Assembly: GCA_029858305.1 (NCBI GenBank) | Contig: JAOUFI010000006.1 | Location: forward strand, 1 to 64,000 | Source of the DNA: Candidatus Thorarchaeota archaeon | Lineage (GTDB): Archaea > Asgardarchaeota > Thorarchaeia > Thorarchaeales > Thorarchaeaceae | Length of the DNA: 64,000 nt | Direction of reading: 5' to 3' | Shown here: positions 5,953 through 20,735 of the stretch, piece by piece | How positions within the stretch are numbered: the first letter of the stretch is position 1 | Layout: every line of letters starts with the position of its first letter | Notes under the pieces: generated by a model | Seen by the model: only the letters and a program-made list of their open reading frames with translations | Databases searched by the model: none | Told to the model about the DNA's origin: nothing | Translations under genes and position numbers: made by a program

Positions 5953-6654
5953 TTATTTCTGCATAATACTGACTGGATTTTCTAGAAGGGCGCGAACTGA
6001 GTCCTTGACAACAAACTGTTCATCACCGACTTGAACTTCAAGGAGTTTTCGGAGTTCAAACCGTCGCAGATAGCCTACAGCCTGCTCCCGCTCAAGGTTG
6101 AGATCTTTCATCAGTTTCTTGAGACCATCTTTGGCCCCACTGTACTGAGCAAACTTAGCAAAGACAGAACTCCATTGCATCATTACTAAATAGAGTAAAG
6201 TTCTGAGCATACTATCAACATTGGCTCCCGTCTTTGCAGATACTGGAAAGACAGGAAGACCAGCTAGAAATCGAAGGTTCATTCTGAGAGAGTCAACAGG
6301 TCGGGATTCCTGTACATCTTGCTTATTGGCTGCTACGACACAGGGTACTCCTGGTAGAAAGAATGCAATTTCACGGAAGAATAGCTTGGCTCTAGCATCA
6401 GACTCTGGATCTACAGAATCAACGACAAAGATGATACCATCTGCTCCTGAGCTTAGTATTTTACGCATAGTTCGAAATCGTAAGAGCCCTGGTGTGCCAA
6501 ACATGAAGACGCTCATACCAGCTACATTGGCTAGGCCATGATCCATTGCAATGGTTGTGCCCCTACGTTCAATGTTGATACAAGCTCCATTTGTAATATG
6601 GTGTATCATCTGACTCTTACCAGCTTCATAAGGTCCAGTCACAACAATCTTCAT
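5953..6654 (-). CDS. MglA/ATP_bind_1-type small GTPase with C-terminal winged-helix-like extension
   Basis: G1 GPYEAGKS, TTIAMDHG, G3 GTPGL, G4 NKQD, G5 SAK. Confidence 0.9.
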   Translation of the reverse strand: MKIVVTGPYEAGKSQMIHHITNGACINIERRGTTIAMDHGLANVAGMSVFMFGTPGLLRFRTMRKILSSGADGIIFVVDSVDPESDARAKLFFREIAFFLPGVPCVVAANKQDVQESRPVDSLRMNLRFLAGLPVFPVSAKTGANVDSMLRTLLYLVMMQWSSVFAKFAQYSGAKDGLKKLMKDLNLEREQAVGYLRRFELRKLLEVQVGDEQFVVKDSVRALLENPVSIMQK

Positions 6655-6841
6655 TCCTAAACACCAGCGTCTTTCTTCTTGAATGGCATATTCCGTGTAA
6701 CCTGATGGGCGTTAAATGGTTTGCCGTTATTAAGCCTGAATCGTATAGCCTCCCATTATAGATGGCGCGTCCATAACCCAAGAGTATATATCGACAATAA
6801 GCGAACTATTGAACAGAATACTAATAGAAGTGAAGTAAGTC

Positions 6842-7006
6842 ATGTCGGAATCAAGGACAACACCCATCGAAGAGTTTTGGCTCTTTCATGATTTAGAAAA
6901 GGAAGAGATAATCGAGCTTCGTAAGTTCATAGATCCAGAGCTTGACCTCAAATGTGTTGAAGGAATAGATGTTCTTCTAGAAAAATTAAATCATTTGCTC
7001 GGTTAG
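6842..7006 (+). CDS. Small hypothetical protein, 54 aa (MSESRTTPIEEFWLFHDLEKEEIIELRKFIDPELDLKCVEGIDVLLEKLNHLLG)
   Basis: ATG 6842 to TAG 7004-7006 fills the gap between the GTPase and selD; TATA-like GTATATAT at ~6784; amphipathic helical composition; below the ORF-track cutoff. Confidence 0.6.
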   Translation: MSESRTTPIEEFWLFHDLEKEEIIELRKFIDPELDLKCVEGIDVLLEKLNHLLG

Positions 7007-7016
7007 AATATGAGTG

Positions 7017-7093
7017 GAGACCGGCTACTCGCAGTAGCTATCCTCGAACGCCACGCCAGATGGTTTTTGGCGCTCTCACGGGAATTCGGTCTC
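7017..7093 (-). promoter_or_regulatory. SECIS-like RNA element overlapping the selD stop codon
   Basis: RNA reads GUGAG-AGCGCCA-AAAA-CCAUCUGG-CG-UGGCGUU-CGAG: UGAN/NGAN tandem G.A core, stem, unpaired A-run, apical mini-stem; outer GAGACCG/CGGUCUC helix. Confidence 0.7.
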
Positions 7094-8110
7094 AATAAAC
7101 TGAACATCTTGTGCCAATGTGGCACGTGGTGATCCGTCATGTTTTGTAGCTTTACCAACAGTCCAACAGGGCAGACCTTGGTCTGCTAGGAGCTCCTGGA
7201 ATTGATCAACTTTTTCAGGTTCCATAAACACAAGCATTCCGCCTGCAGTTTCAGCACCATATCCAGTTGATAATTTGTGACCAAAGAAATTGGCAAGTTC
7301 AAGCGTTCCTTTAATCACTGGAACTCGATTGATTACAACATCAACACCACTTAGAGAGCTCACATTACTTGCATGACCAAGTAGACCAAATCCAGTGATA
7401 TCAGTTGCAGCATTGACCCCGACTTTGTTCATCGCTTGAGCAACTTCAAAATTGCTCTGGGTCATAATGCGGACTGCATTTTCTTGCATTCTTAGCAAAG
7501 CAAGTTCGTCAAACTCAGCCAGCAGCATTTCACGTTTCTCATCCTTAAGGTCCCTGTAAGACCTCATAGCAGACTGAATACCAAGTGGTTTTGTTAGCAC
7601 TGCTATGTCGCCAGGATGTGCCCCACTAGAGTAAACAACATTTCGTGGATGGGTCACTCCTAAGGCGATTCCACCAAAGACCGGACAAGGATTGGTGATC
7701 GTTTGACCCCCAGAGAGTTTCGAACCAAGATCCGTCATAAAGCTGTTCATCCCCTTTAGGACATTAGCAACAATATGCTCGGGCAAGTTGTCGGGATATG
7801 CGAGGAACGCCTGTAGCGAGAGAATATTGGTAACTCCCATCGCAAACACATCGTTTGTGGCATTGCACGCGATGATTTTACCCTGAATGATGGGGTCATC
7901 GTGAATGGGTGTAAAGATGTCGACGTTCTCTACGACTGCTACTTCATCATTGACGATGCGGACCACAGCATCATCGCCCACCTCACCTTCACAGGTTGTT
8001 CCTTGTGAGAGAAGGCCAGCAGCCTGTAGAAGTCTTATGAGATCATCCTGTTTGACCTTACAGCTTCAACCATGAGTTGTTACCATTGCAGTGAGTCGCA
8101 CTTCAGCCAC
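7076..8110 (-). CDS. selD: Selenophosphate synthetase, selenoprotein (UGA=Sec at 8066-8068)
   Basis: Reading through TGA gives MAEVRLTAMVTTHG-U-SCKVKQDDL..., the SelD active-site motif, in frame with 7076..7981 (GDDA, DIFTPI, NATNDVFAMG, GGQT, LTKPLG, TDITGFGLLGH, ETAGGML); GTG start 8110 downstream of AAGGAGG. Confidence 0.93.
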
Positions 8111-8286
8111 CTAGTGACTCATCCTCCTTATTTTGTTCAGGTTTTTTCAACCCTGAACACTTCCTCCCATGGCAGGGAATAAGCCTTTCCCCATCGTTAT
8201 AATAAACAGTTTGTACAAGCTCACTTCACAAGCCTTATAGCGAGTCTAGCAAAGAAGGTCATAATTGGACATTGAGAGTGTGTTAG

Positions 8287-9732
8287 ATGGACATCAAGAA
8301 GGTCGCTGAAAATATCTATGAAATTCCGAAGGGCACGCAACCATGCATGAGAGTACCTGTTAGAATCTACGCATCAGAAGATCTTGTTAAGAAGATGAAA
8401 CAGGATGCAACTTTCACCCAAGCAACCAATGCAGCTTGTATCCCAGGAATCTACACACATAGCATTGTACTCCCTGACGGACACCAAGGCTATGGGTTCC
8501 CTATTGGTGGAGTTGCAGCAACTGATTATGAGAATGGTGTCATCTCCCCAGGCGGAGTTGGGTATGATATCAACTGTGGAGTCAGAGTGTTGAGAACGAA
8601 TCTTGACGAGAAAGATGTCAGACCTAAAATCAGGCAGCTTATTGACCAACTTTTCGCGGATGTTCCAACAGGTGTAGGAAAACAGGGCAAGATCAATCTA
8701 CAATCTCACAAGGGTGTGGATGAGGTGCTCAGCGGAGGGGCGAGATGGGCTGTTGAAGAAGGTTATGGTTGGGAGGATGACCTTGAGAATCAAGAGGCTA
8801 ACGGTAGGCTAGATATTGCTAATCCTGCAGATGTACCAGGTACTGCAAAGGAGAGAGGGCTCAAGCAAAGCGGAACACTTGGTTCTGGCAACCACTTCCT
8901 TGAGATTCAGCTTGTTGATGAGATATACAATGAGCAGGCCGCTAAAGTGATGGGCATTACGAGGAAAGGACAAGTCATGGTTATGATCCATAGTGGTTCT
9001 CGTGGACTTGGACATCAGGTCTGTTCTGAATTCATACGTGTTATGACTCAAGCTATGAGGAAGTACAAGATTGACTTGCCTGATAGAGAGCTATGCAGTG
9101 CACCTACAACATCGCCAGAGGGACAGGCCTATCTAGGTGCAATGAGCGCTGCAGCAAACTATGCTTTTGCCAATCGCCAAGCAATGATGCACTGGACAAG
9201 AGAAGCTTTCTCAAAGATCATGGGTCAGTCGCCCGAGGATTTAGACATGGGACTGATATACGATGTCGCACATAATATGGGAAAGGTAGAGGAGCACGAA
9301 ATTCAAGGAAAGAGGACCAAGGTTGTGGTTCACAGGAAAGGTGCAACTCGAGCATTTCCACCAGGGCATCCCGATATTCCTTCAAAATATCGAAATATTG
9401 GACAGCCAGTAATTATACCAGGCACAATGGGAACTGCATCATACATTCTATTGGGAAATCAACGTAGCATGGATCTCTCATTTGGTTCGACTGCACACGG
9501 TGCTGGACGCTTTCTTAGTCGCACACAGGCAAAGAGGAAGTTCTTTGGAAAAGAGGTACAGGACCAGTTGGCTACTGAAGGTATTATAGTAAAAGCTACT
9601 CAAGGAGTGGTCATAGCTGAAGAAGCTCCAGGAGCCTATAAGGATGTAGACGAGGTGGTTCGGGTTTCAGACTCTGTGGGGATTGCAACCATGGCAGTGA
9701 GACTACGTCCCATTGGCGTCATCAAAGGATAA
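8287..9732 (+). CDS. rtcB: tRNA-splicing ligase RtcB
   Basis: LPDGHQGYGFPIGG, GYDINCG, GTLGSGNHF, HSGSRG, YDVAHN, HRKGAT, STAHGAGR, EEAPGAYKD. Confidence 0.97.
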   Translation: MDIKKVAENIYEIPKGTQPCMRVPVRIYASEDLVKKMKQDATFTQATNAACIPGIYTHSIVLPDGHQGYGFPIGGVAATDYENGVISPGGVGYDINCGVRVLRTNLDEKDVRPKIRQLIDQLFADVPTGVGKQGKINLQSHKGVDEVLSGGARWAVEEGYGWEDDLENQEANGRLDIANPADVPGTAKERGLKQSGTLGSGNHFLEIQLVDEIYNEQAAKVMGITRKGQVMVMIHSGSRGLGHQVCSEFIRVMTQAMRKYKIDLPDRELCSAPTTSPEGQAYLGAMSAAANYAFANRQAMMHWTREAFSKIMGQSPEDLDMGLIYDVAHNMGKVEEHEIQGKRTKVVVHRKGATRAFPPGHPDIPSKYRNIGQPVIIPGTMGTASYILLGNQRSMDLSFGSTAHGAGRFLSRTQAKRKFFGKEVQDQLATEGIIVKATQGVVIAEEAPGAYKDVDEVVRVSDSVGIATMAVRLRPIGVIKG

Positions 9733-19646: not shown

Positions 19647-20735
19647 ATGGGAGACATCCGAGTAGCAATTGCAGGACTTGGAAACTGTGCTTCAGCACTC
19701 ATCCAGGGGACTCATTATTACCGCAACTCACGAGCAGAGGATGAGGTTCCAGGTCTCATGCATGTTGATTTTGGGGGCTATTTCCCGAAGGACCTGAAGT
19801 TTGTTGCAGCCTTCGAAGTTAATAGGAAAAAGATTGGTCTTGACATAGCCGATGCCATATGGGCGGAACCAAATTGTTGTGCTAAGTTCGCGCCAGATGT
19901 ACCAAAGATAGGAGTCAAAGTTCTTCCCGGCCCTATTTCAGATGGTGTAGCACCACACATGAGAGAGTCCTTCTTTGTCTATGATGAAAAGGAAATTGAA
20001 CCAGTTGATGTTGCAGAAGAACTCAGGAAAGCCAAGGCAGATGTTCTAGTAACATACTTGCCTGTTGGCAGTGCTCAAGGTACAAGAATCTATGCGCAAG
20101 GAGCATTGGATGCTGAGATAGGATATATCAATGCTATTCCAGAGTTCGTTGTTTCAGATCCGAAATCTCCAATCGTTCAGGGATTCGAGAGAAAAGGAAT
20201 CCCCTGCGCAGGCGATGATATAAAGAGCCAACTGGGTGCAACAATCCTCCACAGAGTTCTTGCTCAACTCTTCGATCAAAGAGGTCTGATTCTCGAAAAC
20301 ACATACCAGCTAAATATTGGTGGTAACACCGACTTTGAAAATATGCAAGTGGAAGATAGATTGAGCTCTAAGAGAATCAGCAAGACTGAAGCAGTGACAA
20401 GTTGTGTACACTATGAGCTTCCAACCAAGATTGGACCAAGCGATTATGTTCCATTTTTACAGGACAATAAGGTATGTTACATCAGTATGAGGTCCAGAGC
20501 ATTTGGTGACCTACCTCTTGATCTCGATCTTAAGCTCTCCGTGCAAGACTCACCAAATAGTGGTGGTGTCATCATCGATGTTGTAAGAGCAGTAAAAATA
20601 GCCATGGACCGTGGAATTGGTGGAGAACTCTCAAGTATAAGCTCGTATAGCTTCAAACACCCCAGATACCAAATCAACGATTTTGAAGCAAGAGTAAGAG
20701 TCGATGAGTTTATCGAGGGCAAAAGAGAACGTTAG
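19647..20735 (+). CDS. ino1: myo-inositol-1-phosphate synthase
   Basis: AGLGNCASALIQG, YLPVGS, GDDIKSQLGAT, YQLNIGGNTDF, SKRISKT, DSPNSGG. Confidence 0.96.
   Translation: MGDIRVAIAGLGNCASALIQGTHYYRNSRAEDEVPGLMHVDFGGYFPKDLKFVAAFEVNRKKIGLDIADAIWAEPNCCAKFAPDVPKIGVKVLPGPISDGVAPHMRESFFVYDEKEIEPVDVAEELRKAKADVLVTYLPVGSAQGTRIYAQGALDAEIGYINAIPEFVVSDPKSPIVQGFERKGIPCAGDDIKSQLGATILHRVLAQLFDQRGLILENTYQLNIGGNTDFENMQVEDRLSSKRISKTEAVTSCVHYELPTKIGPSDYVPFLQDNKVCYISMRSRAFGDLPLDLDLKLSVQDSPNSGGVIIDVVRAVKIAMDRGIGGELSSISSYSFKHPRYQINDFEARVRVDEFIEGKRER

Follow-up and report, generated by a model that had tools for sequence, protein, structure and literature searches.

The selenophosphate synthetase gene (selD) of this Thorarchaeota genome ends in a UGA codon that lies inside a predicted three-armed RNA fold, raising the question of what the fold does and how a single codon can serve it and the reading frame alike. 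The locus is on the minus strand of the 64,000-nt stretch of DNA that was analyzed (the window), and its features are listed in Table 1. The initial annotation proposed a eukaryote-like selenocysteine insertion sequence (SECIS) of the Asgard kind, with the selD stop codon as its core UGA. That identification holds on the fold, its covariation, and the conservation of the core described below. The element is very probably the SECIS of the selD mRNA, belongs to the eukaryote-like type II elements already published for Asgard archaea, and directs selenocysteine (Sec) insertion at the UGA of codon 15, with the UGA of its kink-turn core being the stop.

Table 1. Coordinates in the window of the selD SECIS element, its parts, and the adjoining reading frames
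Feature	Position	Strand	Basis or remark
Whole three-armed SECIS element	7017..7093	(-)	Minimum free energy (MFE) fold; covariance-model match 7008-7098
Outer helix, 5' strand GAGACCG	7087..7093	(-)	Codons Glu-Thr-Glu (first base); 7 bp with 7023-7017
Outer helix, 3' strand CGGUCUC	7017..7023	(-)	MFE fold and covariation
Predicted kink-turn C-stem, 5' strand UCC	7081..7083	(-)	Within codons Phe-Pro; pairs with GGA 7041-7043; RNAalifold register
Predicted kink-turn C-stem, 3' strand GGA	7041..7043	(-)	G 63/63, G 62/63, A 61/63
Predicted kink-turn bulge C-G-U (7080-7078), then G7077 and A7076	7076..7080	(-)	U-G-A 7078-7076 is the selD stop
Core 3' GA	7044..7045	(-)	G7045 opposite A7076, A7044 opposite G7077
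Upper stem, 5' strand GAGCGCCA	7068..7075	(-)	8 bp, 0 mismatches, directly 3' of UGA
Upper stem, 3' strand UGGCGUUC	7046..7053	(-)	MFE fold and covariation
Unpaired AAAA above upper stem	7064..7067	(-)	MFE fold
Apical ministem CC/GG, loop AUCU (type II form)	7056..7063	(-)	MFE fold
Third arm: hairpin GCUAC/GUAGC, loop U-GCGA	7024..7038	(-)	MFE fold; all 5 pairs covary (n = 63)
selD (selenophosphate synthetase) CDS	7076..8110	(-)	GTG start 8110, terminal TGA 7078..7076 included; ORF list and translation with TGA = U
In-frame UGA, Sec codon 15, motif THG-U-SCK	8066..8068	(-)	990 nt upstream of core UGA; translation
Convergent 54-codon ORF	6842..7006	(+)	ORF list; ends 10 nt beyond the SECIS element

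Folding of positions 7005-7100 (minus strand) with RNAfold returned the structure drawn in the initial annotation as both the MFE and the centroid structure, and the bases quoted there for the element are as stated. The helices, the unpaired AAAA, and the side hairpin were all reproduced. The exception is the apical ministem, drawn as three base pairs (CCA UC UGG), which is wrong because hairpin loops of 2 nt are not possible; instead, AUCU is enclosed by CC/GG in the fold. The fold energy is -33.1 kcal/mol, compared with -23.3 +/- 3.2 kcal/mol for shuffled sequences (z = -3.0), and 1 of 200 shuffles was as good. Such a z-score, just -3.0 on a single sequence, could by itself be put down to chance hairpins or an intrinsic terminator. 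However, this explanation is scarcely credible, given that all the helices covary, that no terminator-like site was found in 6700-7300, and that no T-run follows the element.

The covariation was determined in two sets of orthologs, a first set of 28 full or near-full selD genes (67 to 99% identical) and a second of 35 more selD genes from the same GTDB family, 63 in total. In a plain MAFFT alignment of the first set, 89.6% of the cells are paired, compared with 28 to 46% in controls with slid partners. Double-sided changes are seen in 15 of 23 pairs, a count reached by none of 500 shuffles. In a model-fitted alignment of all 63 sequences, which leans towards the structure, 94.9% of the cells are paired and 16 of 22 pairs show double-sided changes (183 cells; reached by 0 of 500 shuffles). 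The check that had been suggested at the outset, covariation across selD 3' ends, therefore gave a strong signal in both sets. The outer helix is 99.8% paired (n = 63), and three of its seven pairs show compensatory changes (GC/AU, AU/GC, and CG/UA exchanges) at coding positions, namely, the third base of the Glu codon and the first and third bases of the Thr/Ala codon. Thus, the claim that this helix is built from the last codons of the gene (7087-7093) was borne out. The C-stem is 99.5% paired (n = 63), with one compensatory change from C-G to U-A in the ortholog L025, and all seven modeled pairs of the upper stem change on both sides (n = 63), the first pair above the core often being non-Watson-Crick (unpaired in 15 of 28). 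G-U pairs are frequent and would turn into A.C if the opposite strand were read, which places the RNA on the minus strand.

The unpaired positions are conserved as well. Every one of the 63 family orthologs ends selD with a TGA within the RUGA core; the U, G, and A of the core are each invariant and are preceded by A in 36, G in 26, and C in 1 sequence, and the 3' side of the core is G in 61 and A in all 63. The columns of unpaired adenines hold A in 51, 61, and 58 of 63 sequences, with a run of 2 to 5 A in 61, and the loop of the third arm follows the pattern N-G-[C/U]-R-A (G 63/63, C 59 and U 4, R 63/63, A 63/63). A ministem with at least two G-C pairs is present in 58 of 63 sequences. The other five, selD elements of the genus g4 (L010 and L049-L052), lack the ministem; their apical loop is 12 nt long (GAAACAGCUGAU-like), which makes the apex type I-like, and the scaffold is identical in all other respects. 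The encoded C terminus before the TGA follows the pattern ..E[T/A]xF[P/L] in the family. Taken together, these results confirm that the fold is a real, strongly conserved element, far beyond chance.

The consensus structure also fixes the geometry of the core, for which RNAalifold gave one register, with UCC paired to GGA. In this register a 3-bp C-stem is followed by a 3-nt bulge C-R-U, by G7077.A7044 and A7076.G7045, and then by the upper stem. A simple kink-turn of the Kt-7 type consists of a canonical stem, a 3-nt bulge, tandem sheared G.A/A.G pairs, and a noncanonical stem. At the level of sequence, the SECIS core fits this textbook form and is predicted to be a kink-turn, and in this register the last bulge base and the two sheared purines would all come from the stop codon. 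The C-stem, the outer helix, and the third arm meet in a three-way junction, an arrangement like the one reportedly termed a "k-junction" by Wang and colleagues in 2014. The likeness extends to the C-stem, the 3-nt bulge, the tandem G.A/A.G pairs, the often non-Watson-Crick 3b.3n pair, and the junction; a three-dimensional kink and L7Ae-type binding are predicted at most.

The gene itself is of the kind that requires a SECIS. The motif around codon 15 is the one expected of a selenoprotein SelD, and an internal TGA lies within the SelD match in all full-length orthologs. SelD matches at E <= 0.001 were found in the genomes of 57 of 61 relatives in a whole-genome search with SelD. The organism's own genome contains a tRNA-Sec (C133:5823-5913). 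SepSecS is split across two contig ends (C120:4-720 and C133:8525-9172), and the fragment on C133 is about 2.6 kb from the tRNA-Sec gene. In the same genome, the matches to FlpD (PF02662) and the NiFeSe large subunit (PF00374) are without an internal TGA. Two other hits were discarded: a SelD-like match on C144 with TGA codons, which belongs to a HypE-like ORF that starts only after those TGAs and so is not a selenoprotein, and a spurious Hafnia stretch in a related-locus search that gave only two true relatives.

On the 3' side, the end of the convergent ORF at 7006 means that the element fills the whole gap between the genes and leaves no room for another 3' element. The possibility raised at the outset, a better SECIS further downstream, was not realized over the approximately 570 nt beyond the element, which, like the element itself, have no Rfam match. 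Over 6500-8300, Rfam (E <= 10) returned no SECIS family and four weak, unrelated plus-strand matches inside or upstream of selD, which places the element outside the eukaryotic SECIS family as modeled. Metatranscriptome contigs from three runs of one study lie over selD (X1, 7088 to 8124; X2, 7088 to 7355 and 7693 to 7959), and none covers 7017-7087 in these assembled contigs, from libraries of a type that can contain DNA. In two runs the contigs break off at 7088, within the 5' half of the outer helix, and leave no loose end. This break may be an assembly branch point in sequence common to several strains, and nothing follows from these contigs for expression, for the 3' end, or for the SECIS element.

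The link between the element and Sec-type selD was examined with a covariance model, R1, built on the first 28 orthologs. R1 recovers all 35 elements outside its training set (61 to 99 bits) and gives a single strong match in the organism's own 3.04-Mb genome (92.2 bits; the next match scores 16.6 bits, E = 0.27). Among 86 family genomes, 67 have an R1 match, one element each. The 19 without a match are 9 genomes with only a long TGA-free SelD fusion (G001, G003, G013, G032, G372, G388, G389, G392, and G393) and 10 without a selD match. The TGA-free form is an open frame of 743 to 758 codons with a SelD-like N-terminal part, no internal TGA, and no R1 element, and is probably a Cys-type SelD fusion that replaces the selenoprotein form. 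In two family genomes, G014 and G020, the R1 element is kept (L108:122-214, minus strand, 68 bits, and L109:1731-1823, plus strand, 72 bits) and selD is lost, with approximately 7 and 26 selD C-terminal codons, preceded by stops, left upstream of it. These look like relic SECIS elements after deletion of selD.

This distribution bears on the proposal that the fold is an L7Ae-type kink-turn for protein binding or mRNA stability, unrelated to Sec decoding. Such a role would agree with a core that fits the simple kink-turn consensus and with the lack of a SECIS match in Rfam. It is nevertheless quite improbable, because each genome with the element has a single copy, always next to Sec-type selD or what remains of it, and the nine genomes limited to the TGA-free form lack it. 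Furthermore, its A-run and stem length are those of the published Asgard SECIS, and selD needs a SECIS, and the 70 nt that separate it from the convergent ORF contain nothing else that is conserved.

As a SECIS, the element is of a kind that has been described. Huang et al. (2024; PMC11227280) report, in the text of their paper, an "eSECIS-like" type II element for Thorarchaeial selD with a GUGA_GA core, an A-rich bulge of the [U/A][A/G]AA type, a ministem, and a lower stem G[A/U]G_C[U/A]C. The element studied here shares the gene, the clade, the GUGA_GA core, the A-rich bulge, and the ministem, and has a counterpart of the lower stem in the GAG/CUC that closes its outer helix. Measured against the type II definition in the text of the same paper, the core has the sequence 5'-GA_[G/A]A-3' (5' GA in 63 of 63). 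The upper stem, 8 bp without a mismatch, falls within the 7 to 15 bp with at most two mismatches given there, and the ministem (2 bp), the bulge (AAAA plus CG, 6 nt), and the loop (AUCU, 4 nt) fall within the 2 to 8 bp, 4 to 12 nt, and 2 to 6 nt given for the apex. In addition, the element begins 15 nt before the stop, inside the interval of -30 to +600 nt that PMC11227280 allows relative to a selenoprotein gene's 3' end in genomes that decode Sec. According to its text, that search window was opened 30 nt upstream of the CDS end to allow for the frequent overlap of stop codons with the AUGA.

An overlap with the stop had been reported even earlier. The text of Mariotti et al. (2016; PMC4989117) places the stop codon of Loki VhuU.1 inside the AUGA of its lokiSECIS and argues that a UGA so near the SECIS cannot be recoded, owing to a minimal distance. 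It also describes an SPS (selD) lokiSECIS that "resembles a eukaryotic type II SECIS," having a shortened main stem and one more stem at the apex. As described there, VhuU.1 differs from the present case in being another gene and a type I element (9-bp stem, 11-nt loop, no ministem), and its overlap is that of one gene copy rather than a family-wide invariant. Hence, the novelty implied by the initial annotation does not stand: both the stop/AUGA overlap and the GUGA_GA type II SECIS of Thorarchaeial selD are in the texts of PMC11227280 and PMC4989117. The identification is correct, with little in it that is new. What is added beyond the published text (figures and SECIS tables aside) is of modest value: the exact kink-turn geometry, the covariation at coding positions, and the conserved third arm. 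The text of Huang et al. mentions neither the side hairpin nor the 3-bp C-stem and 3-nt bulge, nor the invariance of the overlap in Thor selD. No third arm or junction in Asgard SECIS is mentioned in the text of PMC11227280, PMC4989117, a 2026 review, or Sun et al. (2021), again leaving figures and SECIS tables aside; the word "junction" is absent from the text of Mariotti et al. and of the review and appears in that of Huang et al. only in the title of a reference. A full-text literature search for archaeal SECIS with a three-way junction gave nothing on Asgard SECIS by title or abstract.

Relative to better-known systems, the element resembles the eukaryotic type II SECIS in its RUGA...GA quartet, the unpaired As above helix II (here GUGA, GA, and AAAA, matching AAR), the ministem, and an action on a distant upstream UGA. 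Conversely, the stem of 7 to 8 bp between core and As is shorter than in eukaryotes, and the CDS overlap and the third arm set it apart. With the euryarchaeal SECIS (Methanococcus) it shares being a 3'-UTR element that acts on an upstream UGA in archaeal selD, whereas the MFE fold and the consensus structure have a predicted kink-turn core here and no GAA_A bulge between G-C clamps. A lokiarchaeal SECIS was not functional in Methanococcus maripaludis, as reported by Peiter and Rother (2025).

Among the selD genes sampled, the overlap of stop and core occurs in the Thor family only. An outgroup sample of 22 selD genes from nine other Asgard families (20 plus L029 and L030) ends in TAA (14), TAG (4), or TGA (4), and in none of the 22 is the stop in the core; the SECIS core lies 0 to 30 nt downstream of it. 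The side hairpin was found by RNAfold in 17 of these 22 and by eye only in L100-L104. A second covariance model, R2, was built on six sequences for a Loki-like family, f9, and matches 112 of 135 f9 genomes with one or two elements each. In 43 f9 elements from 30 genomes, 99.1% of the cells are paired, and double-sided changes occur in four of the five third-arm pairs and in one pair of the C-stem, each in 10 to 18 sequences, with 1 of 5 global measures (further pair types) below all shuffles in the control. The third-arm loop is mostly YGCRA in this family. Many f9 genomes have selD twice, at a spacing of about 1.3 kb (13 loci: L118:1501-1595 and 2795-2889, and 12 others), and each copy has a three-armed SECIS; the third arm of the second copy differs, with loops GCAC, GCGA, and GCAA.

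The Loki-like f9 elements, which can be set beside the published SPS lokiSECIS, start after the stop in 43 of 43 cases (TAA 42, TAG 1), with the AUGA 9 nt later in 42, whereas the Thor element contains the stop. The SelD C termini differ accordingly, ..IEV* in the other families versus ..IETEFP* in the Thor family. The distribution of the third arm suggests a three-armed SECIS as the ancestral state of Asgard selD. The stop-in-core layout, judged by outgroup comparison rather than a rooted tree, looks derived in the Thor family: since the outgroup stops precede the core and the C termini differ in this way, the Thor frame would have been extended by about three codons into a SECIS of the kind that lies after UAA or UAG in the other families.

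A similar layout was found in a second selenoprotein gene of the organism's own genome. This gene, vhuU (..RCYDC-U-LSCGAH..VTGGG*), was detected only by translating past the vhuA stop and has its own AUGA...GUAAA...GA SECIS. Its terminal UGA is the AUGA of that type I element (L039:422-424, equal to C137:6584-6586, minus strand, outside the window), which has a 10-bp stem with one mismatch, the loop GUAAACGAACG, and then GA. The MFE fold of the vhuU SECIS is also three-armed (-46.6 kcal/mol, z = -3.1): a small hairpin stands at the side, and the outer helix is made of coding sequence. A further candidate type I SECIS lies on C166 (approximately 19707-20648, minus strand, outside the window), with AUGA, a 9-bp stem with one mismatch, the loop GUAAAGCCUAGCA, and GA. 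Its UGA closes a 313-codon frame with two in-frame UGAs, one of them in C-S-S-U, and this frame may be an unlisted selenoprotein. Genome-wide searches with SECIS pattern descriptors made for this work returned 96 and 24 matches, nearly all noise, and the first descriptor overlooked vhuU because of a single mismatch.

With the element taken to be the selD SECIS, its own UGA has to be explained. The working model is that the SECIS acts over 990 nt to direct Sec insertion at the upstream codon 15 through a putative kink-turn core that has the selD stop as its U-G-A and carries the 7- to 8-bp stem, the unpaired As, and the ministem above it. Below the core would lie the three-way junction, closed by the 7-bp helix of the last codons and bearing the G-N-R-A side hairpin. 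Given the usual reach of the mRNA channel, a ribosome that has this UGA in its A site would have drawn in the outer helix and the C-stem, together with the 5' half of the upper stem. These parts, and with them the kink-turn, would then be melted before the terminal UGA reaches the A site, so that the SECIS could not act there and the codon would be a plain stop. The element would then have to refold after every termination.

The alternative is that the terminal UGA is itself partly recoded as Sec, which would produce a C-terminally extended SelD. The codon is, after all, a UGA in a Sec-decoding organism, and in the window 16 sense codons separate it from a UAG. Yet the in-frame extensions range from 0 to 74 codons in the first 28 orthologs and from 0 to 55 in the other 35, their sequences are unrelated, and a second stop follows immediately in 5 of 28 and 2 of 35 (7 of 63). 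The SECIS would also be unfolded with that UGA in the A site, and recoding there is highly improbable. These data agree with the earlier suggestion that Sec is not inserted at the terminal UGA, no in-frame extension being conserved among the 63.

A further idea is that the layout was selected for its effect: terminating ribosomes would unfold the SECIS, and their traffic would throttle Sec insertion at codon 15 and autoregulate the synthesis of selenophosphate. The invariance of the overlap in the family would agree with this, the melting at termination would follow from the geometry, and SelD, being itself a selenoprotein, makes feedback possible in principle. However, the overlap is not peculiar to selD, as vhuU of the same genome and Loki VhuU.1 have their stops in the SECIS core too, and selenoprotein SelD in nine other Asgard families has a SECIS clear of the stop. 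Moreover, the invariance is equally expected from the dual coding and RNA constraint once the layout was fixed. Autoregulation thus seems unlikely, and the selD SECIS acting at codon 15, with a plain stop in its core, is the preferred reading of the fold.

The third arm invites a broader, tentative conjecture, which is possible rather than likely. The three-armed element would be a "k-junction" RNA whose third arm is a required docking or protein-recognition element for the archaeal SECIS readers (e.g., L7Ae plus EFSec), and the Thor frame would have invaded this RNA, so that every termination strips and resets it. Only two small ORFs with an L7Ae domain, of 125 and 112 codons and located on contig C50, were found in the organism's own genome, which is 89% complete. 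SBP2 was not found in Asgard archaea according to the texts of PMC11227280 and PMC4989117.

As a discovery, the main claim carries little weight, since Asgard SECIS, the type II SECIS of Thor selD, and a stop in the AUGA are all in print. Occurring once per genome, the R1 element is a useful marker of Sec-type selD genes, which gene callers truncate at codon 15, and can serve as an annotation aid for them. Finally, the predicted kink-turn and the third arm, which covaries in two distant Asgard families, could matter as targets for finding the SECIS reader of organisms without SBP2.
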